From the NCBI GenBank assembly GCA_030324005.1, contig JARDVH010000106.1:59270763-59334762 (forward strand): 64,000 nucleotides of DNA, written 5' to 3'. Of this stretch, positions 3,030-64,000 are shown piece by piece. This DNA comes from Negaprion brevirostris. Lineage: Eukaryota. The translations under genes were made by a program, and so were the position numbers. Position 1 is the first letter of the stretch; the number at the start of each line of letters is the position of its first letter. The notes beneath the pieces were generated by a model. That model was not told the origin of the DNA, made no database searches, and was given only the letters and a program-made list of their open reading frames with translations.

Positions 3030-3130
3030 TTCCACGAAGGGGAACAATACTCGACTTGAAACATGAACTGTTTCTCTCTATATAAGTGCTGCAGGCCTGC
3101 TAGGTATTTCCAGCATTTTCTGTTTTTTAT
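3030..3130 (+). mobile_element. Degenerate family B-related fragment
   Basis: gacttgaaacatgaactg...cctgctaggtatttccagcattttctgttttt resembles the 3518-3753 arms. Confidence 0.55.
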
Positions 3131-3134
3131 GAGT

Positions 3135-3517
3135 GGAATGGGTCTATTCTCTGGAGGTTAGAAATGAGGGTGATCGCATTGGAACATTGAAAATTCTTAG
3201 AGGATTCAACAAGGTAAACAACAAAGGTTGGAATGTATGAAATGATGTGTCACAACTACAGAATTACGGGAACAGCCATTATGACCAAAACAAACAAAAA
3301 AAATTGTGAACGTTTGGAATTCTCCACTCCGAAGAACTACGGATGCTCAACTGATGAGTATATTCCGAGATCTATAGATTTTTGGGTATTAAGAGGATCA
3401 AGTAATATGGGGGTTGGGTAAGAAAGTGAAGTTGATGCAGAAATTCATCCAAGATCTTATTAAATGGTGGTGGAGTGGGCTACCGAGGGGCTGTATGGCC
3501 AACACCTATTCCTGTTA
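3135..3517 (+). mobile_element. CR1-type LINE 3' fragment
   Basis: Decayed GL(F)SLExRRMRGDxI coding remnant plus a CR1-type 3'UTR (gggctg(a)atggcc...cctattcctgtt). Confidence 0.75.
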
Positions 3518-3753
3518 TAAAAGCAAAATACTGCAGATGCTGGAATCTGAAACAAAAACAGAAATTGCTGTAAAATCTCAGCAAGTTTGGCAGCATCCGC
3601 GGAGAGAAAATAAAACCAATGTTTCGAGTCTGGATGACCTATCTGGATGAGTCGCTCCTCAAAGGGTCATCCAGACTTGAAATGTTGGCTCTATTTCCTC
3701 TCCACAGATGCTGTCAGACTTGCTGAGATTTTCAAGCATTTATCTGTTTTTGT
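3518..3753. mobile_element. Short palindromic Penelope-like terminal element (family B) inserted into a CR1 3' tail
   Basis: Inverted arms. 14-bp flanking duplication ACCTATTCCTGTTA (3504-3517) / ACTTATTCCTGTTA (3754-3767). Confidence 0.75.
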
Positions 3754-3851
3754 ACTTATTCCTGTTAATGTTATGGTTATATAAATAATACAAACAATAT
3801 ATGGATAATTGAAAAAAAATCAGATAGATATTTTCTGGATAGAATACTAAC

Positions 3852-6414: not shown

Positions 6415-6570
6415 TGTATAACTGAATTCACCAAGATCAGTTAGTACAAAATCTTTGAAGCAGTCTTCAACAGTGGGAGTTGCCATAGAGAGCAACAAGA
6501 TTTGCTCTGTCCCCATGCCTAAGAAGTCATCCAATTGTACTGACCATATCGCCTGCCAAACAACGGCAAT
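6415..6570 (-). CDS. FANCB: FANCB coding exon 2, 156 bp: IAVVWQAIWSVQLDDFLGMGTEQILLLSMATPTVEDCFKDFVLTDLGEFSYT
   Basis: Acceptor ttttaccctAG, donor GTAAGT, phase 0/0. Contains the conserved FANCB motif DDFxGxGTEQ. Confidence 0.95.
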
Positions 6571-7326
6571 CTAGGGTAAAACAAAGGCCATTATTTTACT
6601 TTAGTCGATGACAAATTGCATGTAATTAGCAACAAGGTTGCATGTATAAACCTTCCAAGAATACACCAATTATTTGTCCATTCTTACACTTGTTTTATTC
6701 TTTCTCAGATGTGGGCATCTCTGGCTAGGCCAACATTTGTTGTCCATCTCTCATTATCCTTGAGATTTGATGGCTCGCAGAATTTATTGCAAACTGTTAA
6801 ATCAGTTGAACTCACAGCATTCAAGTGTTAAAAAGAATCCTGGCAGTAGTATTGCCATTTCAGGAACATATTAACATGTTTTCCAAGTTAATTGTAACTG
6901 CTGTGTTCTTGACAGTAATTTGACAAGTGATGTACTTGTTTGGCTAGGCTATTACATCCTTTCATGATTATTTTAAGTTACTTTTGTAAATGTGTCTTTT
7001 GTTTTGGCCACTCTGTCCCCATCCTGTTGAGCTCATACTTTCTTTCTCAGGGGGAAGGTTTTGGTAATTCGTGTCATCAAATCAACCATCAATATTATGA
7101 TTGCTGGCTAGTCTCCTTGCCCCCTGTCCCCATAATAAAAAGCATAATCTTCTCTGCTAAAGATGAATAGCAAACAACCACAAAGACTAGAAATTAAATT
7201 AGAGTTTCTAGTAAAGATCAATTTTTAGACCTGTGACATGTATACAGCACTAACCGATTTTCAAGTAGTGCTGAAAATGAAAAGCAAAATGAAAGGAAAC
7301 ATATTTCAGCATCATTGAACTGAATC

Positions 7327-7432
7327 AAGAGTTCTGAAGAAGAGCCATATTGGACTCAAAATGTTAACTTTGTTTCCCTCTCCATAGATCCAGCCAGACC
7401 TGCTGAGTTTTTTCAGCACATTTTTACTTTTC
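7327..7432 (+). mobile_element. Single-arm family B-related element with a decayed hammerhead motif
   Basis: AGAGTT-CTGAAGA-A-GAGCC-ATATTG-GACTC-AAA-ATGT-T-AACTTT, followed by the shared ...gacctgctgag...cagca tail. Confidence 0.65.
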
Positions 7433-8375
7433 AATCATCATTTGAAGCTTCTTTACTCTTATTAAAGACTGCAAAGATATAGCAGCAAATATTATTTCAT
7501 CAGGGCATGACACGGATAATTTATCAATATGTATTCATGCATATAAGAACATAAGAACATATGAAGCAGTACTTTGGTATATTCTAATAGGATGAATGGA
7601 ATGCCTGAAGTGCTAAGTTTCCACTTTCACGTTGGTTCCCTGCCCATTGCCAAGTGGGGTCTCAAAGCTTAAGGAGCAATCAGTGCTCTTTCTAGCTTCA
7701 GGGGACCACTCAGTTGCAATAGATGGCAAGTAGCAAGAGCATAATTGAACAAAAACATGGCCTCTTAAATCCTTTTTAAAAACTTTAATTAGAAGGTAGA
7801 GAAGGAAACCAGGCCACCACAGTGGAGTGGGGACAAACATAAATCTAGTTGGCTCAGGGAACCAGCATCATAGCAGGTTGCAATATTTTTGGACTCTATC
7901 TGCCTTTGTTCTCAGCCGGGCCTGAATATCTCACCTGATGAGTGCAACTTCAGCCTGTTAAAGAACATTTTTAAAGAACAACCTACATAATGGCAAATAC
8001 AGACAATATTACTTTATTTTGTGCTTACAATGGCCATTGGGAGTAATCAGAAGAATCTGCTCAAAGTTGTTCTGTTACAGCTGTCCTTTATACAAATCAT
8101 ACAAGTATATTCAAGTCTGTACAGAGCTAATCACATTCCTCAATACAATGGATTTCCTACCTGATTCACCCGATAGATCTTCATGAGAATACAATCAGGC
8201 CCATAACTAAATTACTTATGTGGTTGTAGCTTTTTTCCCTAGAGCATTCCATTCTTTGTATGCTTTCATTTTATTCAAATCATGCTATCCTCTGTATCCG
8301 GTCAAGCCATGCTAACCCATATTTTTTGAATTAGCCTTTTATTTTTATTCGACTTTCTCAAGTCTTAACAGGTAT

Positions 8376-8589
8376 TCATGATGTGGAGGTGCCGTTGTTG
8401 GTCTGGGGTGGGCACAGTAAGAAGTCTCACAATAGCAGGTTAAGGTCCAACAGGGTTATTTGGAATCACAAGCTTTCGGAGTGTTGCTCTTCATCAGGTC
8501 ACTCACTTGATGAAAAAGCAGTGCTCCAAAAGCTCATGATTCCAAATAAACCTGTTGGATTTTAACCTGCTGTTGTGAGTCTTCTTACT
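8376..8589. mobile_element. Short palindromic Penelope-like terminal element (family A) with two decayed minimal hammerhead motifs
   Basis: Inverted arms span 8416-8589. The minus arm reads CTGATGA-A-GAGCAACACTCC-GAAAGCTTGTGA. Flanked by CTTAACAGG(G)TAT on both sides. Confidence 0.7.
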
Positions 8590-8769
8590 TAACAGGGTAT
8601 GGTGGGGGATTCAGCTATGCAACACTGATGTCTCCTCAGTTCCAGCCTCTCTCTGATTCCCACTCTTTCCTTTCTATCTCAGCCTAGGAAGAAAGGGATG
8701 TAAAGAAACTAACTCACTTAAACATAGAAACCATGCCATCACCTGGTTAAACAATCCCCACATAATTGA

Positions 8770-9610
8770 TTTCATTGATTTATTTATCATTGTCACATGT
8801 ATTGGGACGCAATGAAAAGTATTGTTTCTTGTGCATTATAAAGACAAAACATCCTTTTGATAGAGTACATTGGAGAGAAGAAAAGGATAGGGTGCAGAAT
8901 ATAGTGTTGCAGTTACAAATAAAATGAGGAGAAAGATCAGCTTAATATGTGATAGGGGCATTCAAAAGTCTGATGGCAGCAGGGAAGAAGCTGTTCTTGA
9001 GTCGGTTGGTACATGATTTCAGGCTTTTGTATCTTTTTTCTGACAAAAGAAGATGGAAGAGAGTGTGTCTGGGGTGCGTGATGTCCTTGATTATGCTGGT
9101 TGCTTTCCAAGGTATCAAGAATTGTAGACAGAATCAATGGATGGGAGTTTGGTTTGTGTGATGGACTGAGTTGCGTTCACAACTGTTTGTAGTTTCTTGT
9201 GGCCTTGGTCAGAGCAGGAGCCATACCGAGCTGTGATACATCTGGACAGCATTCTTTCTATGGTTCATCTGTAAAAATAGGTCAGAGACCTAGTGAACAT
9301 GCTGAATTTTCTTCGCCTCCTGAGAAAGTGGAGGCATTGGTGGATTTTCTTAACAATAGCATCAGTGTGGAGGGGCCAGAACAGGTTGTTGATGATCTAG
9401 ACACCTACAAACTTGAAGCTCTTGACCATTTCCACTTCATCCCTTTTGATGTAGACAAATGCACGTCCTCCACTACATTTCCTGAAGTTAATGACTATCT
9501 CCTGCATTTTACTGACGTTGCGGGAGAGATTATGATCATTGCACCATTTCTCCAGATTCTTTATCTCCTTCGTGGACTCCATCTCATCATTGTCATCGTC
9601 ATTTCAGATG
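8770..9610 (-). mobile_element. Rex1/Babar-type LINE 3' fragment
   Basis: Minus-strand remnants NLEKWCNDHNLSRNVSKMQEIVINFRK and EMVKSFKFVGV. The 3'UTR is shared with copies at 23.6, 30.1 and 48.3 kb. Confidence 0.8.
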
Positions 9611-9944
9611 AATCATAAGATTTGTGAGCATCTATTTAATAAGTGTGGTAAGGTTGGTGGCGTGATACTGACACACTGGAAGAATAACAATTCAAAAATA
9701 AGAACATAAATGTTAAGTAAGTTGGCCCAATGGGATTAATTGCTATTGCATGTAATAAAGCTCTAAAGAACTTTTATTCCAAAATTTCAATGAATAGCAA
9801 AATGTAGTAAAATGCATCAAAGAACATGTTTGCCTTACTTCTGAGTCACAGCCGTGCCTTTCTACAAACAGGGAGAAGAAAGATATTTTGTGGAGAGATA
9901 AAGGGATGAAAGTCTGGAACCTTGCACCAAACACACTATATTGC

Positions 9945-10727
9945 ATTTGTCAAGTATTTGCCGACTCAGTCAGCTTGTCCCATTCACCCCGCACTCAGCT
10001 TAGTATTATCTGCAAATTTGGAGATATTCCTTCATCCAAATCATTAATGTACAATCTGAGTAGCTGGAATCCCAGACTGAACCCTGCGGTACCCACTAGT
10101 CACTACCTGTCACTCTGGGAAGGACCCATTTATTCCCATTCTCTGCTTCCTATCTGCCAACCAGTTCTCTACCTACGTCACTGCATTATCCTCGATACCA
10201 GGGACTTTAACTTTGCTCACTGATCTCCTGTGTGGGACCTTGTCAAAAGCCTTTTGTAAATCCATAGAATCACAGAATCCATACAGAGTAAAAGAAGGCC
10301 ATTTAGCCCATCAAGCCTGCACCAACAACAATCCCACACAGGTTCTATGTCCATCGCCCCACGTATTTATCTCACTAATCCCCCTGAGAATAAGGGGCAA
10401 TTTAGCATGGCCAATCCACCTAACCTGCATATCTTTGGACTAAGGGAGGAAACCAGAGCACCCAGAGGAAACCCACGCCGACACAGGGAGAACGTGCAAA
10501 CTCTGCACAGGCAGTCACCCAATGCCGGAATTGAACCTATGTGAAGTCTTGTTATACAACATCCACTGGTTCACTCTTGTCCACTCTGCTGGCCACATCC
10601 TCAAAAAATTCTAGAAGATTTGTCAAGCATGATTTCCCTTCAGTGAATCCATGCCGACTTGGACCAATTCTGTCACTGCTTTCCAAATGCTCAGTTATTA
10701 CATTCTTAATAATTGATTCCAGCATTT
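9945..10727 (-). mobile_element. CR1-type LINE RT fragment, interrupted by a SINE at ~10263-10541
   Basis: SRHGFTEGKSCLTNLLEFFEDVASRVDKSEPVDVV RT motif. Confidence 0.85.
10263..10541 (-). mobile_element. HE1-like tRNA-derived SINE
   Basis: ggccaatccacctaacctgcatatctttggac...gagaacgtgcaaactc...ggaattgaacc (B-box on minus), with a LINE-derived tail. Confidence 0.8.
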
Positions 10728-11060
10728 GTAATAAAGTGGATGAATTAACTGCACAGACAGCCATTAACGGATATGATGTAATTGGATTCATGGAGACCTG
10801 GCTGGGTGACCAGGGATGGGAGCTCAACACCCAGGGGTATTTGATATTCAGGATGGAGATGAAAGGAGGGTGGGGCAGCATTGCTGGTTAAAGAGGATAT
10901 TAATGCAATAGTAAGGAAGGACATTAGCCTGAACAATCAAAGGAAACATCAAAGGATAAAAAACGCTAGTGGGAGTTGTGTACAGACCACCAGACAGAAG
11001 CAGTGAGATTGGGATGGCATCAAGCAGGGAAATAGAGATGCATGCAATAAAGGCACAGCA
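10722..11060 (+). mobile_element. CR1-type LINE ORF2 endonuclease (APE) fragment
   Basis: NKVDELTAQTAINGYDVIGFMETWL and GVVYRPP motifs. Confidence 0.85.
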
Positions 11061-11556
11061 GTTATCCTCAAGAAGTCCTAGATCCTCTCGATGCACTGAA
11101 ACCACTTTATTGTTGGATATCTCAGCCGTTTGCAATCATGTCTACTTGGTTGGAGGCGGGGGTGGGTGCGGAAGCGGGCTGGGGTTCTCTTATCGCTTGC
11201 CCTTGAGACAGCTCATCTCACTGCAGCCCTTCAAATCCCACATCAGCATAAACAGGTAAGAGTGACAGACCTGGTGGTGCATGAGAAGCTGCACCAGATC
11301 TCCTCTCCATTCCAGCGCTTGGGTTACCTAACCTCAGAACCCAAGTGCTGAGGAGGTTTTCCTCATGTCACGATCACTTCAATTAGAAATTCATCCTTTG
11401 TTGGAATCGATGCATCATTTCACCCTCCCTAACTGAGCAATATGATGTGAGAACAATTAGCATATCTTAATAAGGAAATAGAGTAAAAGATCAGGATGCA
11501 ATTTATCTGAATGGGGCTCAGGTTTGAACAAGAGGTGAGATACATTTATGCAATCA

Positions 11557-11573
11557 TGTGTGTGTGTGTGTGT
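11557..11573. repeat. (TG)8 microsatellite
   Basis: Read directly from the sequence. Confidence 0.9.
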
Positions 11574-14120
11574 AACAGATTGCCTTCCATCATGGCGTAA
11601 TGCAAATCCTATGAGACTATGGGGAGGAATGTTAACGTCCCAGTTATGGGCAGATTTTTACCGCATGGGAAGTAAAATTATGAGAAATCTCAAACCTGAT
11701 CCAAATCCATCCACTTGCAATATTTGAAGAGATGCTTAGTGTTACAAGTCATCCATTTAAAGTAACTAATATACTGCATGCCCCAGATTTGTTTCTCTAT
11801 TCTAGCTTCAATGCTAGCGGGTTGGGTTTCTCAGCCATTCTGAGACTTGGCAGCTAAAGGAAGGAGAGAACGGCCACATGGAAAATGTAAATGTTTTTCT
11901 AGCACTGCTTGTGGATTGGGAGGAGTTGGAAAGTTTCTTGTCAGTCCTTTTCCACCCCACTCACATCCCCACCTCTCCATTTCCTCACCAAACTAACAAT
12001 TTAACTTCCTCAGCAATTGGACTCCCCCACTCCCACTCATCAACACCCTTCCCCCACAACCATCAAAACACACCATAATCATCAGCTCTGCCCTAGCCCT
12101 CTTCTTCTGATCTCCAACCCTCATCTCTCCCTTTATCATTCTCCCTAACTCTTTAAGACATGCTGTCCCTAGAAGCACAGTCCCTCTCTCCCAACCCCTG
12201 ACTTCTACTTCAGGCCTCTTTCTTGCTCTTGGGATGCAGCTCCTTCTGTAACACTCCTTGCTCCACAACAATGAGCGCAGCTTCACCCCACAGACTGTCA
12301 TGGTTCAAGAAGATAGCTCATTACCATCTTGTCAAGGGTAATTAGAGATGGGCAATAAATGCTGGCCTGGCCAGCAACATCCGTACCCCATGAACGAATG
12401 GAGAGAAAAGGGAGCTGAGCTTCCTCGGTTTTTCAGTTAGAGAAATTTTTTAAAAATGATCCTATGTTTGCAATTTTCTAGCCTGTAACTCCGTTGGAAT
12501 CTTCCATCCCATCTGCCAAAGGCAACATCCTGTTGTGGGTTGCCTGGTCATGGGGCAGGCAAGCCATACAAAGTACCTTAGACTTTGGCGGGACTGGAAA
12601 ATCCCACCAGCAGCCAATGTTGAGCCACTTCAGTTACAGGAAAACACAACATGGGGTGGGGGGGGGACTGGAAAATCTCAGCCCACGGCTATCAGGGGAA
12701 ACCCAAAAGCTAGAACTCCTTCCCAGCAAGTAGAAATCCTCTTTCAGTAAATCTCGATGGCTATGATTCAATCTGAATATATTTCATCCAGCAGAGAGTA
12801 GAACATTTTGTTAACATTCCTGTTGAAGATTAATTACATTACAATAACACTTAGTCTGGCAATTTGATTTAACATCTTATAGTGATTTTATTAAACTTCC
12901 ATGTATGTTATTGACTGGTTTCTTGGATATTCACAAAGTAGCTTACTAATATAGAAGACATTTGGTTTAACATTTAAATACTGTGCAAAATTAGAAATAT
13001 AATTCAACTGCTGTGAATGAAATGGATTTTTTATTGTAATTTTAGAAGATAAATTATATTTGGCTTTCCCAGGAGATGAAGCAGGAGAATGAAAAATTTA
13101 CCCATTAACATTTGACATTTGAATGACTATAACACCTTACATTGTCTATCTTAGACTTGTCCAAGCATGGTTCCAATGGAATTCTACAGTTTTGTCACTG
13201 TCATAACTAGTGATTTGGCAAAAGAATAGTTATTGCATTCAAACACCACAAGAATAAATTTTTGTCTTTTTATTCTGCAAGTATCGGTCCACCTTGTTGT
13301 CAATCGAGGGGCATGCACACGATGGGTCGTGCGNNNNNNNNNNNNNNNNNNNNNNNNNNNNNNNNNNNNNNNNNNNNNNNNNNNNNNNNNNNNNNNNNNN
13401 NNNNNNNNNNNNNNNNNNNNNNNNNNNNNNNNNGCATCCACAGTATTTTGATTTTACCTAATCACTGGATTCGTATATAAAAAGGATGTCATTACTAAAA
13501 TCTTATACAAAAAGGGTATGAACAGGATTGTTTTGATGTCAATTGTAATCTGCACTTCACAAATTCAGGCAAAGTATTAAAAACATTTTTGCTGTCACTT
13601 AATTTTTCTTCTTTAGCTGTTTTAATTAATTACAAATTTTGAAAATTCATAATGAAGGTTAGTGTCATTGGACAACGGAACTAAAACTCCCAAGCTGAGA
13701 GAAAAATCTAAAAATATGCAGAATCGTTATCCTCAAACTTGCAGCTTCCAGTAACAATTATTTCAAAATAACCCATGGGTAACTTCTTACAGGCATGGCT
13801 AGAATTTAGTATTGTATTATTATAGGAGGAAATAATTCCAGACAGGATTTGTAACAGGGATTAACTAATTTAGCGGACACTTTCTCTCTCTTTTCTTTAC
13901 TTGTGTATTTATAAAAAGATTTCTGAATAAAAACAACATTTTTCTGATCAGGTCCAATGAGATTAAAATCAGACAAAATAATAAGGAACAGAAGAAAATT
14001 AATATCATAGGTTCTCAAATTACTACTACTGACTTGAATAACAACAAGCTTCAAACTTTTTGTGAACACAATGATCTACAAAAGGAGTTTAATACTAGAT
14101 GGAAAGTAACAAATTTATTT

Positions 14121-14255
14121 GAAGGCAAAATACTGTGGATGCTGGAAACTAAAACAAAAACAGAAAATGCTGGAAAATCTCAGCAGATCTGACAGCAGCT
14201 GTGGAGAGAATAGAGCCAACGTTTTGAGTCTGGATGACTCTTTGTCAGAGCTGGA
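14121..14255 (-). mobile_element. Single-arm family B element with a decayed hammerhead motif
   Basis: Very similar to the left arm of 3518-3753. Minus strand reads AGCT-CTGACAA-A-GAGTC-ATCCA-GACTC-AAA-ACGT-T-GGCT. Confidence 0.7.
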
Positions 14256-14845
14256 ATATTTATTTACATTACCAAAATCTCTTCTGATAAAATTCAGGCA
14301 AAGATTGTTTGAATATTCTTTTCTAAGTTACTGCAACATTATTGTGTAAACAGTCCCAAATTAATTCAAAATTGCTTCATTCAAGCTATTGAAAATACAA
14401 ATGTTTGAAGCACAAAAAAATCATTTTGATATTTGCATTAATTCTGAAAATTGTAAATGCAAAAATAATGTGAATTATCAGTGGGATATAATCTGAATGC
14501 TGCAATATCTGACTAATAACATCAGCTTTCAAACAGTAGAATTTGTAGGAGGCAAATGGCACTTTGTGATGGCAATAACAACTGCACTTTTAAATCTAAA
14601 TAATATTTCCTTTTGGAAAAATGATTATTTAAATACATTCCATTCTATAAACTGTGGAATTCAAGAGGACCCTTAGAGGGCTGCTAGACCATTGCTGGAA
14701 TTTTACTACCTTGCCCTCCCTGGAATCGGGGCAGGTGAGGCTCTGTTGGCCTCAGGCAGGATTTTTCAAGCTTCACACGAGCGAGGTCTAAAATCCTGTC
14801 CCCTGTATTAGAGACCGAAAAGAAACATGGTTGCTGTATTTGTAC

Positions 14846-15781
14846 CTGCCAACTTTCCTTTGAGACAGCACAAACATGTCCATCCTTAGAAGACACAAGG
14901 AAGAGGCAATTCTCTCTGTCAGTTGTAACCATTTTTATATCAGAGGTCTCTTCAAAAGGAAGCTGGCAGACATTCTTGGGGACACAGTTTTCGAACAAAA
15001 CCAGCTGCTTCTTACAAGTGCTTGCTACAACTGTGGTCTTTGGTTGATGATTGAGGTCTTCAATGGGGCAAATAAATACATTTGTAACTACAGAGCTGTA
15101 AGCATGTGGGATGAAATGATGGCTACACAAGTTTTCCTTTTGTAAGGAATAAGTGATAAATTCACTACCCCAGATCAGTTTATCAGCTTGCCAAACAGAG
15201 GTTTCGTCATGTTTTACAAGTCCAACAGTTTTTCTTACACCCAGTATAATGATGTCCTCATAAGAAATCTCTCCAATCCATTTAATTGCAGTAAATGAAG
15301 TGGGAATGTTCAAAATTCCATGAGTTTCAAAAGATACATAATACACTTGGTCACCATAACTCCAGAAAACACAGGGCCCAGGCAACAGGGTCACATTATC
15401 TTTTATTTCATATTCCAGTTCAAAGTCCAAACAGTGCTCAATTTCATTTGAGCTATGCAGCATAAGTAAATTATATCCAAATTTAGAATGAGCCTTTTTA
15501 TGTTTCTTAAGTAAGATACAAGGGGAATTTTGCCCTGTTCTTGAATCAATTGTACAACAACAGGCAATGATTTGCAAGAAGGAACTTTTTTGTTTCAGGT
15601 TGAATCTTCCTGAAAATGTTTGAATGAATTTCCCAGTCTCTGAATCAAATGTCATCCTTTTGAACTGCAGTACTGCATCATTTTTCCCACCAGGGTATTT
15701 TTCCTTGGATACAATAAAAGCAATCACCTCTCCTTTCAAAGTTGTGACATTCACAATCTTTTTAATGGATTCCAGCTCCAT
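14846..15781 (-). CDS. FANCB: FANCB (Fanconi anemia group B) first coding exon, 936 bp / 312 codons
   Basis: The long ORF MELESIKKIV...HFIPHAYSSVVTNV...ASTCKKQLVLFENCVPKNVCQLPFEE...AVSKESWQ resembles the large N-terminal FANCB exon. It ends at the donor CAG|GTACA (14846/14845), phase 0. An upstream acceptor ctccatttcAG (15861/15860) would add ~78 nt of 5'UTR. Confidence 0.93.
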
Positions 15782-15964
15782 TACAAACAGATGACTGCTT
15801 AAACCAGACCTGATTGTTATTCAGAGAATTGTTTCAAATTAAGTGATCCAAACAACACACTGAAATGGAGATTATGCAGAATAAATTAATTGTGAATATT
15901 TTTTCCAAGTTGTTGATGTATATTTCTATGTATTAAGGTCTCACATGACCAAATCATTTCCAAA

Positions 15965-16330
15965 AATACTTCTCCAGCAGAAATAACACATCGTCTCCAA
16001 TTTATGTTTGTTCAGTCTTCACAAGAGCACATCACATCCACTACATTGGGAACCCACTTCAGCAGACTGGATAATGCAACATCAATCAGTGAGGGTCTCT
16101 CTCAGCAGTTAAAATAACACATTGGTTCCATTTGTGGGACCTCATTTCGCCAGACATGAGAGTACACAATATCCATTATGTGGGGATTTCCTTCAGCAGA
16201 CATGATGCTATATCATGTGTGAATCTCCTGCAGCAGGCACAGCAGTATAATCCCTCCAATGCGTGTGGGCTTCATTTTCACCATGATGCAAAATAACATG
16301 CATAACGTGGGATCCTCATTTCAGTCGGTG
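15965..16330. repeat. Degenerate tandem repeat, ~45-60 bp units
   Basis: Recurring tgtggg...ct(c/t)(a)tttcagcagac...a(a)taacac core, about 6-7 copies. Confidence 0.55.
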
Positions 16331-16509
16331 ATATTTCCAAATTGAAAAATTTAGTACGTACGTAACACTCTCGTTGTCTAGAGATACAATTAAAGCACAT
16401 ACTGTTATACATACCACACAATATGTATACTTGGCAGCAATACATATAACACCATCTTGGTTAATCAAAACACCCACACACATTTCCCACATCTGAAACC
16501 TTTCTTTAA

Positions 16510-22914: not shown

Positions 22915-24953
22915 GCAATGCAGTTTAATGTGGATAATTTGAGTTTATCCGCTTTCGTAGCTAAAAGGTGAAGGCAGATTATTTTCTGAGTGGATATAAA
23001 TTGAAAGAGGGGAATATGCAACAAAACCTGGGTTTCCTGTTACACCAGTCACTGAAGGTAAGCATGCAGGCACAGTAGGGGGTAAAGAAGGCCTTCATTG
23101 TGAGAGGGTTTGAGTACTGGAGCGCGGATGCCTTGATGCAATTATATAGGGCCTTGATGAGGCCACACCTGAAATATTGTGTGCAGTTTTGGTCTCCTTT
23201 TCTGTGGAAAGATGCTTTCGCTCTAGAGGGAATGCAGAGAAGGTTTAGCGGACTGATTCCTAGGGTGACAGGACTGATAGATGAGGAGATTGAGTCAATT
23301 AGGATTGTATTCATTGCAGTTGAGAAAAATGAGGAGGGATCTCCTTGAAATCTATAAAGTTCCAATAGGACTAGACAAGGTAGATGCTGGAAGGATGTCT
23401 CCAGAACCAGAGATCACAAGCTGAGGGTACAGGGGAGATGATTTAGGACAGAGATGAGAAATTTCTTCATGCAGAGTGTGAAATTTGCTACCACAGGAAG
23501 TGGTTGAGGACAAAACATTGAATGTTTTCAATAGGCAGCTAGATATAGCACTTGAGGCAAAGGGGATCAAAGGATATGGGGACCGGGGGAGGTGGGATCA
23601 GGCTATTGAGTTGGATGATCAGCCATGATCAAAATTTGATTTATTATTGTCATATATTAGTACACAGTGAAAAGTACTGTTTCTTGCGTGCTATACAGAC
23701 AAAGCATACCGTATATAGGGAAGGAAAGGCAAGAGTGCAGAATGAAGTGCTACAGTCATAGCNNNNNNNNNNNNNNNNNNNNNNNNNNNNNNNNNNNNNN
23801 NNNNNNNNNNNNNNNNNNNNNNGGTTGGTACGTGTACTCACGTATCACGTATTTTTGTGTCCTTCTCCTGAAGGAAGAAAGTGGAAGAGAGTATGTCCGG
23901 GGCGTGTGGGGCCCTTAATTATTCCGGCCGCTTTTGAGGTAGCGGGAAGTGTAGACAGTGTCAGCGGATGAGACATTGGTTTGAATGATGGACTGGACTT
24001 TGTTCACGACCCTTTGTAGCTCATTGAAGTCTTGGACAGAGCAGGAGCCGTACTAACCTGTGCTAGAACCAGAAAGAATGCTTTCTATGGTGCATTGGTA
24101 AAAGTTGCTAAGGACATGCCAAATTTCCTTAGTCTCCTGAGAAAGTAGAGGCATTGGTGGGCTTTAACTATGGAACAGGTTGTTGGTGATCTGGACACCT
24201 AAAAACTTGAAGCCCTTGACCATTTCGACTTTGTCCCATTGATATAGATGGGCATGCTCTCCACTATGCTTCCTGAAGTAAATGTCAACAAAATGAAAGA
24301 GATAATCTCTCCCTTGATGACTATTGTCATTGCATAAGTTCACCAGATTTGCTATCTCTTTCCTGTACTGTCTCTCAGCATTGTTTGAAATCCAACCCAC
24401 TGCGGTGATGTCATCAGTAAAAAAAATCGAGTCAGAGGGTAATTTGGCCACAGTCATAGGTATATAAGGAGTATGGTAAAGGGCTGAGGATACAGCCTTG
24501 CGGACCACCTGTATTGATTGCGGCGGAGGTGTTGCTGCCTATCCTTACTGTGGTCTATAGGTTAGGAAGTCTAGGATCTAGTTGCAGAGGAAGGGGCTGA
24601 GCCCCAGGCCACAAAGTTTGGAGATGTCTCGTAGGAATAATAGTGTTGAAGGCTGAGCTGTAGTCTGTGAATAGGAGCCTGACATAGGTGTGTTTGTTAC
24701 CTAGGTGTTCCAGCATTGAGTATAGGACCAGGGAGATGGCATCTGCTGTGGACCTATTGCAGCGATAGGTGAACTGTAGTGGTTCCGGGCAGTCTGGGAG
24801 ACAGGAATTGATTTGTTCCATGACTAACCTTTTCGAAGCATTTCATAATGATAGATGTCAGTCAGAGCCACCAGATAGTAATTAAGGCAGAATGAATGGT
24901 AGAGCAGACTCAGGCTGAATGGTCTTCTCCTGCTCCTATTTTCTATGTTTCTT
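22915..24953 (+). mobile_element. CR1-type LINE 3' part; pieces at 22915-23630 and ~24890-24953
   Basis: [22 protein letters not shown]. The 3'UTR is split at agccatgatc | aatgaatggtagagcag. Confidence 0.85.
23631..24885 (-). mobile_element. Rex1/Babar-type LINE RT and 3'UTR
   Basis: PLQFTYRCNRSTADAISL and TYVRLLFTDYSSAFNTIIP motifs. Confidence 0.85.
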
Positions 24954-30049: not shown

Positions 30050-30768
30050 TGAAAGGGAAGCATTGTCATCGACTTTAGGAAGCATAAAGGAGAACATGTT
30101 CCTGTCTACTTCAATGGGGACGAAGAGAGAGAGTTGAGAGCTTCATGTTTTTAGATGTCCAGATCACCAACAACCTGTCCTGGTCCCTCAAATGCTGACA
30201 CTGTGGTTAAGAAAGCTGACCAACACTGCTATTTTCTCAGAAGACCAAGGAAATTTGGCATGTCAGCTACGATTCTCTCCAACTTTTACAGATGCACCAT
30301 AGAAAGCATGCTTTCTGGTTATTTCACAGCTTGGTATGGCTCCTGCTCTGCCAAAGAGTGCAAGCATTTTCAGAAGGTTATGAATGTCGCCCAATCCACC
30401 ATGCAAACCAGCCTCCCATCCATTGACTCTGCCTACACTTCCAGCTGCCTCGGCAAAGCAGCCAGCATAATTAAGGACCCCACACACCCTGGACTTTCTC
30501 TCTTCCACCTTCTCCCTTTGGGAAAAAGATAAAAGTCAGAGGTCACGTACCAACTGACCCAAGAACAGCTTCTTCCCTGCTGCTGTCAGACTTTTGAATG
30601 GACTCACCTTGCATTAAGTTAACCTTTCTCTACACCCTAGCTATGACTGCAACACAACATTCTGCATTCTCTTGTTTCCTTCTCTATGAATGGTATGTTT
30701 TGTCTGTATAGTGTGTAAGAACAATACTTTTCACGATGATAATACATGTGAAAATAATAAATCAAATC
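30050..30768 (+). mobile_element. Rex1/Babar-type LINE 3' fragment
   Basis: VKKA.Q.CYFLRR.RKFGMS.TILSNFYRCTIESML motif, with an (AAATC)n tail. Confidence 0.85.
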
Positions 30769-31639
30769 AAAGAATGTCAGACTGATTGTATCCATAAGCC
30801 AAAACAAGTGAGATTTATAGCACTGAATGCACTCTGTCTTTGCCCGAACTCTGATGTAGCAATATGCCATTAAACCCCACTACCCTGAATCTTTTAAATT
30901 GAAATGGCTCTAACTTCTGAACTACAAATTGTATGTGTAGTGCTGTGTGCTATTGATAGTTTCCTTTCAGCTTAAGGAATAAGTACAACTGTTCTAAAGC
31001 TGTTCCTCACGTACGCACCACTTTGTAAAGTCTAACGTATGCAACCCTTTGAGATGAATTTATTTCCAAGTGTACATTGAAAACAGATGTTAATATAACA
31101 TGGCATTTGACCTTCAGTGCTCTGAGGATGTGTGACCATTCAGGGGGAGAATATTCTTCTGAATTATTCCTTAGTTCCTCTTCTGTGACACTGTGACATT
31201 GATTGTCACCTATTGTCAGAGATTTTGCATAAAATATCTGCTGACAGTTTCATAATTCTAGCAATGGACTTGAAAGATGTAATGAAACATTAATGTAGTT
31301 GAAATTTCATTGGGCTTTTTATACACCAAGTGAGCGTGAAAATTGCCAGTTCCAAATAAACCTTGAAGAGATGGTAGGACCAACATATAAAGTAAATCTG
31401 TTAGGGTTTATATTATCCCAGCATTTGCATTTAGCACATATAATACGTTGTTCTGACTGGAAAATGGTGTCCCAGACCAATTATGTTACTTTTGTGTCAG
31501 TGGTTTTCAGATGAAAGACATAAAGCCGATAACGTTATTGAATAGTTGCCACTTTGATTCTTGAGCTTACTGTACAGGAGATGTGAAGTGATCTCTTGTA
31601 GGTAGTCTCATCATCCTTGGGCATCCTTTAGGCTTGTGT

Positions 31640-42192: not shown

Positions 42193-43874
42193 TACTTTTT
42201 GTCTGTCCATTGTTGGTTGGCACACTGGCTCCTGCCAGTGTTTCTAAATGTAAACACCTTGTACGTTCCCAATGAAATAATCTAGGCCCAGTTTATTCCT
42301 TAGCAATCTAACTATTTGCGCTCATTGTCAGGTGAGCTTCAGAAAAGGTCACATCACCCCTTACATTTTACCTTAAAATTAAAGGCATCGTCCAAACTCT
42401 TTGAAACCTCATAATTGTAACAGTTCACATTGTATATTTGTGAATATGATAGGTGTTATTTTGTGGATTGTTGTAGATGAGTGATATTTATTGGAAGTAC
42501 AGTCACGTCATTGTTGCCCACTTCCGCATTGTGAATATTAAGGAAGGTTAAATTTAAGATTTTCTTTGAAGTTGCTTTTGAGCCCTTTGCAATATAAATT
42601 TCATCATTTATCTGTATGAAGCTGTCAATGAAATCTTTTGAACCACAAATATGACTAAATGTGGTAGTAAAAAATGAGAAAGGGCCAAATGAGATTGCTA
42701 ATTTTAAAATATGATTCATCAAACATCAATTTGGCAGTTGCTATAGGTGTGATTTTCCTAGTTAGGAGATGATTCAAAATGCCATTTGATGGAAGCTTGC
42801 ATAGTAATTTTTTTTTTGCTTGCTGTCATGAACTAGACTCTACCCAGTAATCACATCCGGTTTTGCCTTTTATGTAGATGATTTCAAAGGATGAGCACCA
42901 GAGGGTATTTTTTTCCCTCAATTTTGTGGAGTTTATACTGCTGCTCACTAAGTTTTCTGTGTTGGCTGCCAGTTTTATTCTGTTTGTTCTTGGATGAAAG
43001 ATGCTCATGGATGTTGTGGGTTAACTTGCAATAACTTGATTCCACCTACTGTTTAGAGATTTTCCCAGTAGCATCTATTTGCCATAATCCAATTGTACTC
43101 TAGTTATAATAAGAATTCTACCTTGCATGCCCTGGTGTGACTCTTACTAAAGTCGGTAAAGTTCTACTTTATTGTTTTTGATATGGAGACTTTGGATACG
43201 ATCATTCAAAATATCAGTAACCACTGCTGTTCTAGCTGTTAATTTAAATAGTTGCTGTTCTTAATTTATGATTAAAACATGGAACTTAGCACTAGAAGAA
43301 GCCATTGAGGAAAATAGCAAAAATATACTTAAAGGAAGCAAGTAAGTCGTACATGAGGGAGAAATGAACAGAAAGTTCTATTAATAGGGTTAGATAAAGA
43401 GGGGTGGAAGGAGGGTCATGGGGCACAAGCATGGTCTGAATGGACCAGTTTGATCAAATAGCCTTTTCTGAGCTGTAAGTTCAATGTAAAATGAGAGGAG
43501 TCCTAATTTATGCTGAAGATGTAGTTGTATAGGTCAGGTATCCTTCATCTGAAACTTTTGGGACCAGTTTGCATTTTGGCATTCAGATGTTTTCAGTTTT
43601 TGGGCCTAATTACATTACAATAGCCTAGGCTAGCTGTAGTTTACAAAGACTGGGTTGTTTCTCCTCTTATGCACCCTATTTCTCACCTGTCAACAAAACG
43701 GATTGTGTTTTTTTGGACTAAGTCACAGTCCGTTCTAAAAGTATGAAGATGTTTAAGTGATATAAACTAGAGGTAGTATAATGAGCTGTTTTAGTGCAAA
43801 CTGAAGGAAGCTCATTTATTTCCATTGATGTATTTTTTCTTTAACAGCTTATTTTCACATAATTCACTTGCATA

Positions 43875-43955
43875 CAGACTTGAAATGAGAACTTTGTTCC
43901 TCTTTCCATAGGTGCTGTCAAATCTGCTGAGCTTTTCCAACATTCTGTTTTTCTC
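43875..43955 (+). mobile_element. Degenerate family B-related fragment
   Basis: cagacttgaaatg...gctgtcaaatctgctgagcttttccaacattctgttt. Confidence 0.55.
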
Positions 43956-44061
43956 TCACTTAAACCATTAAAGATTTGAGTAGGACTATTCTACGACAAG
44001 AAATAATGTTAGACATATGAGCTGTAGAAGAAAACCAATGTTATGAGTCTACTAGTCAATC

Positions 44062-48299: not shown

Positions 48300-49340
48300 T
48301 ATGATTTGATGTATTATCACATGCATTGAAAAGATTGTTCCTTGCGCGCTATACAGACAAAGCGTACTGTACATGGAGAAGGAAGGAGAATGCAGAATGT
48401 AGTGTTACAATCATAGTTAGGGTGTAGAGAAAGATCAACTTAATGAGGTAGGTCCATTTAAAAGTCTGGCCATGGGGAAGAAGCTGTTTTTGAGTTGGTT
48501 GGTACGTGACCTCAGACTTTTATCTTTTTCCAAAAGGAAGAAGTTGGAAGAAAGTATGTTTAGAGTACATGGGGTTCTTGATTATGCTAGCTGCTTTTCC
48601 GAGACAGTGGGAAGTGTAGACCGGGAGGCTAGTTTGCGTGATGGACTGGGCTTCGTTCACAACCCTTTATAACTTGGACAGAGCAGGAGCCATTCCAAGC
48701 TGTGATACAACTAGAAAGGATGCTTTCTATTTTGCATCTGTAAAAGTTGGTGAGAGTTATAACAGACACGTCAAATTTCCTTAGTCTCCTGAGAAAACAG
48801 AGGCATTGGTGGGCTTTCTTAACTATAGCGTCAGTATGGAGGGACCAGGACAGTTGATGTGGATAGTATCACACACAAGCTCTCGACCATTTCTACTTCA
48901 TCCCATTGATGTAGACATGTCTTCTACTATGCTTCCCAAAACCAATGACCATCTCCTTCATTTTGTTGAATTGAGGGAGAGATTATTGATGTTGCACCAG
49001 TTCATCAGATTCTCTATCTTCCCTGTACTCCGTCTCGTTATTGCCCGAGACCAACCCAATACAGTGGTATCATCAGCAAATTTCAAAATCAAATTTGGCG
49101 GGGAATTTGACCCCACAGTCATAGGAGTATAAGGAGTATAGTAGGGGGCTGAGAGCAAGCCTTGTGGGGCACCGGTGTTGAGGAGGATCGTGGAGAAGGT
49201 GCTGTTGCCGATCCTTACCAATGTGGGTTAGGAAGTTCAGGATCTGGTCACAGAGGGAGGAGCTAAGCTCCAGTCCATGGAGTTTGGTTGGAATAATGGT
49301 ATTGAAGGCTGAACTGTGGTCAATAAATAGGAGTTTGAAC
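48300..49340 (-). mobile_element. Rex1/Babar-type LINE RT and 3'UTR
   Basis: LLFIDHSSAFNTIIP, LNTGAPQG and ILKFADDTTV motifs. Confidence 0.85.
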
Positions 49341-60989: not shown

Positions 60990-62085
60990 CCTAGTGATGT
61001 AATGGTAATGTTCCTGGACTAGTGATCCAGAATAATTCAGGATGCGGGTTTAAATTTCATTATGGCAATTGATGGAATTTAGGTTCAATTAATTACCAAG
61101 TCTGGAAGTAAAAGCTAGCCTCAATAATGATAGCTATGAAATTGTGAATTATCATACAAGTTCAACTAGATCACTATCTAATGCCTTTTAAATAAGGAAA
61201 CCTGCCATCCTTATCTGCTCGGGCCTACATGTGACTCCAGGCTCTCAGTAATGTAGCTAACTCTTAGCTGTCTTCTGAGATGACCTAGTGAACTACTCGA
61301 ATGTACCAAACCACTATAGAAATGTCAAAAAAAACCTACCTAGCATTGACATAGGCACTAGAAACGATACCATGCCCAGTCAACCCTGAAATGTCCTCTT
61401 TTTAATAGCTGGGAACTTTGGGAAAACTGGGAGATTTGTCCCACATACTAGTCTAGCAATACCCTGACAGAATCATACTCATCAAAGCATNNNNNNNNNN
61501 NNNNNNNNNNNNNNNNNNNNNNNNNNNNNNNNNNNNNNNNNNNNNNNNNNNNNNNNNNNNNNNNNNNNNNNNNNNNNNNNNNNNNNNNNNATCAAAGCAT
61601 ATCTTACAGACAATGTCCCAGACTCTCCATCACTGTTTCCTGCACATCTGTCCGACTGGCCTGACAAATCCACCAGAAGTGGCAGCAGTGACCCTAAGAA
61701 TGCTTAACATTGTCTCTGGCCCCTACAAAGCCTCATGCACCAGGTTAAACATGGGCAAAAATTGCCACCTACCATCCTCCTTCAGCTGATGAATCTATCC
61801 TCCTCTATCCTGGACACCAATTGGAAAAGGCACTAAATAGTAAGAATAAAGTTGGGTGGGAGGCTTCAATGCCCATCCCTTTAGAGTGACTCACTGGCAT
61901 TAGAACTGGCTGCTTGCCATGTCCTGAAGTATACATCTGTCAGAATGGCCTGTGGCAGGTAGTGAGAGAACCAGCATATTTCCCTTACCAATCTACCTGT
62001 CACAGATATATCTATCCATGATAGGAATGAGCACCACACAGTCCTTATTAAGGAAAAAGTCCTGTCTTGGATGCTGCCCGAGTGG
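60990..62085 (+). mobile_element. Decayed LINE-like element with a tRNA-like 5' head
   Basis: Head shared with 51965-52262, followed by endonuclease-like remnants. Confidence 0.5.
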
Positions 62086-64000
62086 CTGAACATTTACACA
62101 TTTCCTAGCTTTGTTTTCAGATTTCCAGCATCTGCAGTGTTTCTCTTGTTGTGTTCAGTTTGGTTACACGCCAGTCCACAAGCATAATATGTAAAAATAT
62201 AAAATTGCAGCCGAAGTTTCGGCCAGCTTGATTTTTTTTTTGAACGCCATCTGGTCTCGTAATTCTGCATCTTGAGCTCAGCCTTTTGTTTTAGAACTGT
62301 TTGCTTACCTGCTGTAATCGCGAACAGATTCTTATCCACCTATAGTGCACCAACATTGAGTTCAACTGTCATGAAAATTCAGCATGAGGGTTGACAATTT
62401 GCAAATATGGTCTATATTTTCATAAGTAGCTAGCTTACAAAGATTACTTGGAGGAAAGAACTAACATTATTGCCTCAAAGTGCCATGGACTTGGGGTCAA
62501 TTCCAGCCTTGGGTGACTGTGTGGACTTTACACACCCTCTCCGTGTCTGTCACCTCTGGATGTNNNNNNNNNNNNNNNNNNNNNNNNNNNNNNNNNNNNN
62601 NNNNNNNNNNNNNNNNNNNNNNNNNNNNNNNNNNNNNNNNNNNNNNNNNNNNNNNNNNNNNNNNNNNNNNNNNNNNNNNNNNNNNNNNNNNNNNNNNNNN
62701 NNNNNNNNNNNNNNNNNNNNNNNNNNNNNNNNNNNNNNNNNNNNNNNNNNNNNNNNNNNNNNNNNNNNNNNNNNNNNNNNNNNNNNNNNNNNNNNNNNNN
62801 NNNNNNNNNNNNNNNNNNNNNNNNNNNNNNNNNNNNNNNNNNNNNNNNNNNNNNNNNNNNNNNNNNNNNNNNNNNNNNNNNNNNNNNNNNNNNNNNNNNT
62901 TTTCCAAAGCTTGGCCACTTTATCACGTTTCCCTCGCATAAAATAACATGTGCTTTGATCCACTAATAGAAATACTGGTGCCTAACAGAATACCAATTAA
63001 CTGTTGATGAATTTAAGACTAGTCGTCTCACGCATCCACTTATCCATGCGGCAGGTTTCACAAATAACAAAGCTGGAAGTGTCTCATTTATCTGCAGTTT
63101 TTTGTAATATTTATTACTGTAACTCCATAGAGTACATAATAGAGTTCAAGAGCATAAGACAAAATGCATCATTTTAAAATTGACTTGTGCTTCTGTGTTT
63201 TTGGTGCATATTTATTTGCTAATATAATTTTTCTATATTAAGGATATACAGATAAGGTTTAAATGTGTTGGATTAATGTACTGTTTAAACCTTCAAAATT
63301 GATATCAGGATGAGATGATTTAGTACACTACACAAGCTTTTTTGTTAGAGATCATTTTGCTACTGTTGAATTTTGGATTATATAATCAAGAGCAAAACCC
63401 TTCCCTCCTATGCAATTGGAGACAATATTTTAATCTATGCATATGTTTTATTAGAGACCTGCATAGATGATTTGATGCACAGAGATGCTTTGTAATGAGC
63501 TTTCATTTTTCTCTAATGCTTGAACAGTGGAACTTCAATATTGGACTAATTACAAGCTGGAGCAATTTCCTTACATATTTAACTTGTAAGTTTTTGTGTA
63601 CTTAAATTCTCATTGATCACCTCAGATCATAACTGGCGAGGGGGTGGAGGAGGCTGGTGTGATTGCAAAGAGTAAACCCTCTTGAAACATTTTTATATCA
63701 ACATATTGGATCTTTTTTCTATATTGTTCATTGGATGTGGGTGTCACTCATAAGGCAAGTATTTATTGCCCATCACCTAATGTCGTGATTAACTCCCTTT
63801 TATGAACTGCTGCAATCCATTTAGTGCAGTGATGATGTGTGACTTGGTGGGTGACTTGATGTTGTTCACATGCATCTGCTGTCTTTGTCCATTTCAAGAT
63901 GGTACAAGTTGTGGGTTTGTAACAACCTGTGCAAAAAAGAATCTTAAGATTCTTTTGGATGTAACTATTCGTTTGTTCAATAGTCAATCTCATTTAATTA

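Follow-up and report, generated by a model that had tools for sequence, protein, structure and literature searches.

Two decayed hammerhead copies in a shark FANCB intron, assigned by sequence to the pseudo-LTR of a Neptune-like Penelope retroelement

The nearest described system to the family considered here consists of the minimal type I hammerhead ribozymes residing in the pseudo-LTRs (pLTRs) of metazoan Penelope-like elements (PLEs), a class published in 2014 together with its covarying families (Cervera and De la Pena 2014, PMC4209133; statements on cited papers refer, here and throughout, to the accessible parts of each). It is described as unclear what role PLE hammerheads play (PMC8557442), and cleavage in the Poseidon element PAc of Anolis carolinensis is protein-assisted (PMC11167929). 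A window of a 2.69-Gb shark genome (the whole stretch of 64,000 nt analysed) carries two hammerhead copies, near 7.3 and 14.2 kb. Judged by their sequence, both are short copies of the pLTR of a Neptune-like Penelope retroelement. The family is a further case of the ribozyme-bearing PLE class already published; the original prediction missed this publication, the Penelope origin and the predicted inactivity of both copies. We think it quite probable that these are decayed, predicted-dead pLTR insertions, likely run-off cDNAs of uncut RNA that likely started at the first base of helix I (+1). Taken singly, both copies are ordinary debris; what is worthwhile is the anatomy of the family at population level.

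Positions follow the customary hammerhead numbering, and coordinates are collected in Table 1. A descriptor tolerating decay of G8 and G12, with at least 4 bp in helix I, found two minimal type I parses in the window; 100 dinucleotide shuffles gave a mean of 0.03 matches and none reached two. The sequences and parses originally put forward are borne out with small offsets (plus-strand copy 7328-7371 with its core at 7334, minus-strand copy 14252-14214). The 6-bp helix I ascribed to the plus-strand copy stands for its inner four pairs, the element starting at 7330; the outer two (7328-7329) are junction or flank, since copies of the B2/B3 group that retain upstream sequence show pyrimidines there. 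The base at 7358 and its 14.2-kb equivalent are A, so that G12 is gone in both copies, and the 14.2-kb copy also has A8. Because G12 acts as general base and G8 as general acid of the hammerhead (PMC6155905), both copies are predicted to be catalytically dead. An Rfam search gave nothing at the gathering score, the monomer folding of the two copies was not better than that of shuffles (z -0.49 and -1.18), and a search for target-site duplications yielded only 9- and 10-bp A+T-rich matches, unconvincing with one mismatch each.

Table 1. Features of the window (strand as read in the window; a point marks a head-to-head pair)
Feature	Coordinates	Strand	Remarks
FANCB intron containing the 7.3-, 8.5- and 14.2-kb copies	6571..14845	-	contig joint and FANCB match
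Subfamily B2 copy (decayed minimal hammerhead and pLTR 3' part, without optional tail)	7330..7424	+	antisense to FANCB
B2 copy, internal parts	helix I 7330-7333/7366-7369; core 7334-7340; helix II 7342-7346/7353-7357	+	
B2 copy, scissile bond	after 7365	+	
B2 copy, lesions	G12A, C15.2U, U10.4C (helix II mismatch)	+	
Junction or flank bases originally counted into helix I	7328..7329	+	upstream consensus of B2/B3 group has pyrimidines there
Subfamily B1 copy (decayed minimal hammerhead and pLTR 3' part with tail)	14120..14252	-	sense to FANCB
B1 14.2-kb copy, hammerhead	14252-14214; scissile bond after 14218	-	
B1 14.2-kb copy, lesions	G8A, G12A	-	both at CpG
B1 arm with tail, without 5' half of core	3517..3638	-	head-to-head partner of 3662..3756
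B1 arm without tail, without CUGA	3662..3756	+	
Family A head-to-head pair, AGCU palindrome	8416..8589	.	hammerhead core from 8497, minus strand
Older partial copy, same Penelope family	3051..3127	+	
Older partial copy, same Penelope family	43871..43958	+	

The lesions bear the sequence marks of ordinary CpG decay. For the population, 213 copies were picked on tail motifs alone (the 70 places listed first in each case, out of 2907, 2771 and 430 matches). In tail-selected copies, G12, G8 (in B1) and C15.2/G16.2 vary as CG, CA or TG, the pattern of such decay. Core and palindrome are both retained in just 3/26, 2/25 and 1/18 copies of three tail-selected groups. The intact core CUGAnGA...GAAA...UH occurs at 540 genomic places against 8 in the control, and the ancestral core proposed from the window is matched exactly at 49 places and at none in a reversed control. 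Subfamily masters therefore carried G8 and G12, whose absence from a consensus had been named as one of the observations that would speak against the family. The words cited as retaining G12 at ~3625 (minus) and 3678-3683 (plus) are present, but both arms lack the CUGAnGA half, beginning at model positions 15 and 11. These arms form a head-to-head pair (3517-3756) with a short rearranged junction between them; at 3504-3767 the pair is bracketed by a 14-bp target duplication with one mismatch (3504-3517 and 3754-3767).

The frame at 14687-15820 matches FANCB (7kzp_B, E 1.1e-61; a Pfam search of this frame gave no family), and in contigs from two related organisms 6415-6570 is joined directly to 14846; both copies therefore sit in one FANCB intron, between the minus-strand exons 14846-16379 and 6415-6570. 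Elsewhere in the window, BLAST alone detected an extra tail fragment of the same Penelope family (62069-62142), and another dispersed repeat of 700-1000 bp, probably the 3' part of a LINE, is present in four copies (8771-9592, 23853-24677, 30062-30774 and 48300-49333).

Assignment to a PLE draws on the long copies of the family, in which the sequence upstream passes a spacer rich in pyrimidines and enters broken frames bearing GIY-YIG, C-x4-C-x2-C linker and RT motifs. To the extent that motifs in broken frames allow, the order upstream of the repeat is RT and then a C-terminal GIY-YIG, as in EN+ Penelope-like elements, with the linker separating RT from EN in loci L023, L132 and L134. With broken frames, formal domain support stays modest: RVT_1 was matched weakly (E 0.045, in one of six element fragments scanned), Pfam gave no family on the GIY-YIG fragments, and a protein-cluster atlas returned a GIY-YIG cluster at 0.95, with the family on 51% of its members. 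Loci of B1, B2/B3 and C all match RT/GIY-YIG fragments; each subfamily has ORF-bearing copies. Copies have two preferred 3' ends ~30-35 nt apart, in keeping with the optional 30-40-bp tail of EN+ Penelope-like elements, and an inverted arm lies just upstream in 60 of 200 copies; an inverted 5' copy and two 3' ends (tail) are PLE signatures (PMC8557442, PMC3846280). A full-length element, with the ORF between two direct pLTRs including a 5' pLTR, was found in none of 14 extended long loci, and no intact ORF was found. At L493:3916-4147 and L499:5590-7552 (oriented), ORF remnants that end in the pLTR of one subfamily are preceded, 0.2-0.6 kb upstream, by short copies or pairs belonging to a different subfamily, an arrangement that may stem from co-insertion or from targeting of older copies.

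A profile search detected 6 arms in the window and 20 in 40 arbitrary 10-kb stretches (~318 kb without N); extrapolation from these 40 stretches puts the genome-wide total roughly on the order of 100,000 arms. A literature search on PLE hammerheads in sharks or cartilaginous fishes, with subscription papers, Repbase, Dfam and the figures of PMC4209133 outside its scope, returned nothing relevant; a prior description of the shark family is possible.

The view that hammerhead family B is distinct from family A, with palindromes ACGU and AGCU, respectively, proved correct. Clustering on the tail alone gave three groups (B1, C and an older B2/B3 group), the last of which divides by loop length into B2, with 6 nt (the 7.3-kb type), and B3, with 5 nt (57 matches, by eye). 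Helix I reads AGCU/GGCU in B1 and AGCU/AGCU in C. The change between AGUU/AACU and AGCU/GGCU, originally presented as helix I covariation, is real between B1 and B2, but its weight was overstated, as it sets apart two subfamilies by one master-level change. Pair 2.2-1.2 is U-A in 10, U.G in 2 and C/A in 3 of 15 B2 copies; B3 (n = 42) has 26 C/A, 6 C-G, 3 U-A, 4 U.G and 3 other combinations. A successful B3 master amplified while carrying the C2.2/A1.2 mismatch at the very pair that had been cited. Covariation was scored on 87 of the 213 tail-selected copies (at most 7 mismatches to a family motif, gapless). Across helices I and II, 80% of cells are paired, far above slid controls, but the covariation is weak, its score being reached by 31 of 500 shuffles. 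The change in helix II is mainly one-sided (G.U/A-U).

Addition of core pair 3-8 alters the outcome, the score then being reached by none of 500 shuffles. Subfamily C has converted C3-G8 to U3-A8 in 22 of 25 tail-selected copies, and B has C3-G8 or its decay product. Among the first 100 listed of 1278 C pattern matches, U3-A8 was counted by eye in 89 and C-G in 1. The association of the pair with subfamily gives a pooled Fisher p of 2e-8, counting copies, not events; U3-A8 represents a single event, and the group that carries it is the least diverged (7.5% in C versus 8.9% and 16.7% in the others, values biased low by the exact anchor). This variant, which the original prediction did not pick up and which also exists in Schistosoma PLEs (PMC4209133), is better evidence for selection than the helix covariation. 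Subfamily C (L191-L220 and L311-L340; 1278 pattern matches) combines U3-A8 with a GUC cleavage triplet, not GUU. Seven copies have U at core position 6 (including L351, L362, L451, L458, L463 and L487), apparently the progeny of a further master that amplified despite its non-canonical core. A further candidate subfamily, in which an A-U pair would close helix II, was not established, its pattern giving six mixed matches.

These data bear on the reading that the paired changes reflect neutral drift among a few masters, cleavage being dispensable and the hammerhead a vestige or passenger. We hold it to be rather unlikely, although it accommodates the shuffle result for helices I and II, the B3 mismatch (26/42), the amplified U6 group, the lack of a 5'-end peak at the cleavage site (below) and the normal insertion in vitro of core mutants of the anole element (PMC11167929). 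Against drift stand the double change that turned C3-G8 into U3-A8 in the subfamily with the lowest divergence and the retention of core and pairing by family A despite wholly different helices. Independent events are few, because U3-A8 and family A each represent one master-level event.

In natural intact copies, some of the core is paired to the 3' strand in the minimum fold of the monomer. Modelled dimers reach -16.7 (B1/B1), -15.8 (B1/C), -14.9 (C/C), -7.5 (A/A) and -3.1 kcal/mol (B3/B3), and cross-dimers of A with B1, B3 or C lie at +3.4 to +7.5 kcal/mol. As anticipated, A and B are thus predicted to fail to cross-dimerise (compare -14.9 to -16.7 kcal/mol for B1/C pairs). The energies cover A, B1, B3 and C; B2 was left out, an intact natural B2 copy not being matched by the pattern. 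The antisense strand of the family A 5' end (8416-8589 and other copies) reads as a consensus splice donor in both variants of the family, and on the sense strand this end may resemble the 5' end of U1 snRNA.

Fourteen of the 213 tail-selected copies ran into N, leaving 199 for counts of 5' ends. The commonest end is +1 (20 of 199), and 70 of the 108 copies that reach +6 end within -3 to +6. The hazard of ending is 0.11 per nt in this interval, against 0.0175 at +7 to +32 and 0.0125 at -13 to -40; the peak is spread over ~9 nt, and chance matches move ends by 1-3 nt. In all, 63 of 171 copies end within the hammerhead. A fossil of cleavage, in the form of a 5'-end peak at the cleavage site (+36), was not found: 4 of 179 copies end at +35 to +37 (hazard 0.0075). 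An extra cap-derived G at -1 was rejected, since the base at -1 varies with +5 as its complement, being G in B1 and mostly A in C.

TATAAA, with at most one mismatch, is found at -28 to -32 in 21 of 24 B1 long copies, in 14 of them at -30 (copies chosen by similarity, 24 of 30 anchorable, search range -40 to -20). The B2/B3 consensus, chosen on another motif, has TATA at -31. In the unrelated family A (60 of 75 copies measured), 18 of 43 copies end within 8 nt of the helix I start in a weaker and broader peak, and TATA lies 30 nt upstream in body copies picked on a TATA-bearing motif. These positions are to be read against the usual TATA-to-start spacing and Inr consensus. A search of the literature for TATA or start-site mapping at PLE hammerheads, subscription papers being outside its scope, gave nothing relevant.

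We envisage a promoter in the pLTR from which transcription would begin at the A of AGCU/AGUU. Like that of the anole element (PMC11167929), the RT would start internally, at ~+100 or ~+135; from the cap-proximal pLTR it would run off at +1, giving copies of ~100-135 bp that might often join head to head via their terminal four bases. From a downstream pLTR, RT could continue into the ORF and give long, randomly truncated copies; the tandem transcript with two pLTRs is an assumption, no 5' pLTR having been seen in the 14 long loci. Selection would have acted on the ribozyme in some masters at least (U3-A8), and cutting would take place solely in the dimer. Linear cut RNA would be an infrequent template, in line with the in vitro result (PMC11167929), and circular templates arising by cleavage and re-ligation might serve for long copies. 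The role we favour for cleavage is a dimer-gated step that would remove the cap and part the RT start from the ORF; alternatively, cleavage might serve circularisation (PMC4209133). Masters with a helix I mismatch (B3) or U6 (7 copies) amplified likewise, which counts against this scheme. Only tentatively do we extend it to the proposition that in these vertebrate Penelope elements the hammerhead is the 5' end of a capped mRNA, set by TATA at -30 in two unrelated families, most copies being strong-stop-like cDNAs of uncut RNA. The selected ribozyme would then be a dimer-gated off-switch, removing the cap from the mRNA and cutting the RT start away from the ORF, and the ACGU/AGCU palindromes would serve as a code that prevents cross-family switching.

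A promoter at this place has a counterpoint in Penelope of D. virilis, where the promoter is TATA-less and helix I coincides with the end of an intron, not a start site (PMC2377424, PMC4209133). With this precedent, a 3' splice site might account for the hot spot at +1 and for the invariant AG in helix I, the copies then deriving from spliced or branched RNA; indeed, in B1, C and B2/B3 the tract upstream of the core can be read as a branch point with a pyrimidine tract and YAG. This origin seems unlikely to us. The short copies share no exon 1 upstream, perfect head-to-head palindromes centre on +1 to +4, the TATA spacing is constant despite a diverged spacer, family A shows the hot spot without such a tract, and among the joints listed (of 93) none of 15 was a GT..AG joint into helix I. 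RNA-like contigs of related organisms have opposite-strand joints at +1 in 4 of 4 runs, although such contigs show neither starts nor strand.

That the majority of copies are short, with many fold-back pairs, could also suggest that the short unit propagates itself as a non-autonomous element, MITE- or retrozyme-like, instead of arising as a by-product when full-length PLEs are transcribed, and retrozymes have been proposed to derive from pLTRs (bioRxiv 10.64898/2026.07.22.740005). We find this quite improbable: the TATA box is absent from short copies, pair junctions vary between loci, ORF-bearing copies exist in every subfamily, and the window contains no array of head-to-tail tandem hammerhead units, a trait of non-LTR retrozymes, its copies being solo or head to head. 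That FANCB pre-mRNA is regulated by the two window copies as co-opted ribozymes, for which one could invoke their place in its intron and the sense orientation of the 14.2-kb copy, is hardly credible with the 7.3-kb copy antisense, G12 lost in both, G8 also lost in the sense copy, and the lesions ordinary CpG decay.

For the question of what PLE hammerheads do, the value of the family is that its very large set of fossil copies constitutes an in vivo readout of template ends; it also supplies a core pair compensated by nature and masters that are naturally defective, which makes the question directly testable with short RNAs. With the hammerheads of PMC4209133 the shark family shares the core, the bulged base after A9, the G10.1-C11.1 pair, the palindromic 15.2-16.2 and a 4-bp helix I (the last four, with helix I scored as short, are all present in column counts over 69 tail-selected copies), as well as thousands of solo copies in consensus families (covarying ones in that paper), opposite-strand pairs and the U3-A8 variant of Schistosoma. 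It differs in its 5-bp helix II. No shark term occurs in the supplement text of that paper as searched, and its accessible part contains no mapping of copy 5' ends or TATA boxes.

The Poseidon element PAc (Frangieh et al. 2024, PMC11167929) is alike in its two internal RT start sites, which yield the optional tail, in uncut RNA as the main substrate and in the lack of reads at the cleavage site. The shark family is unlike it in having a Neptune-type linker and in that the evidence comes from genomic copies in vivo; an ORF start at stem II, as in PAc, was not shown in the shark family. With PLEs of the Neptune clade (Craig et al. 2021, PMC8557442) the family has in common RT, a Zn-finger-like linker, C-terminal GIY-YIG and a 3' hammerhead, along with inverted 5'-truncated copies and the tail; assignment as Neptune-like rests on the CX2-5CxxC linker, which Nematis has as well (PMC8557442). 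Finally, the Penelope pLTRs of Adineta vaga (Arkhipova et al. 2013, PMC3846280) resemble those of the shark in a putative TATA and Inr within the pLTR, junction palindromes, solo pLTRs and a 31-bp tail. Head-to-head palindromes were explained in A. vaga by self-priming on an antisense template, whereas those described here fit sense cDNAs ending at +1.
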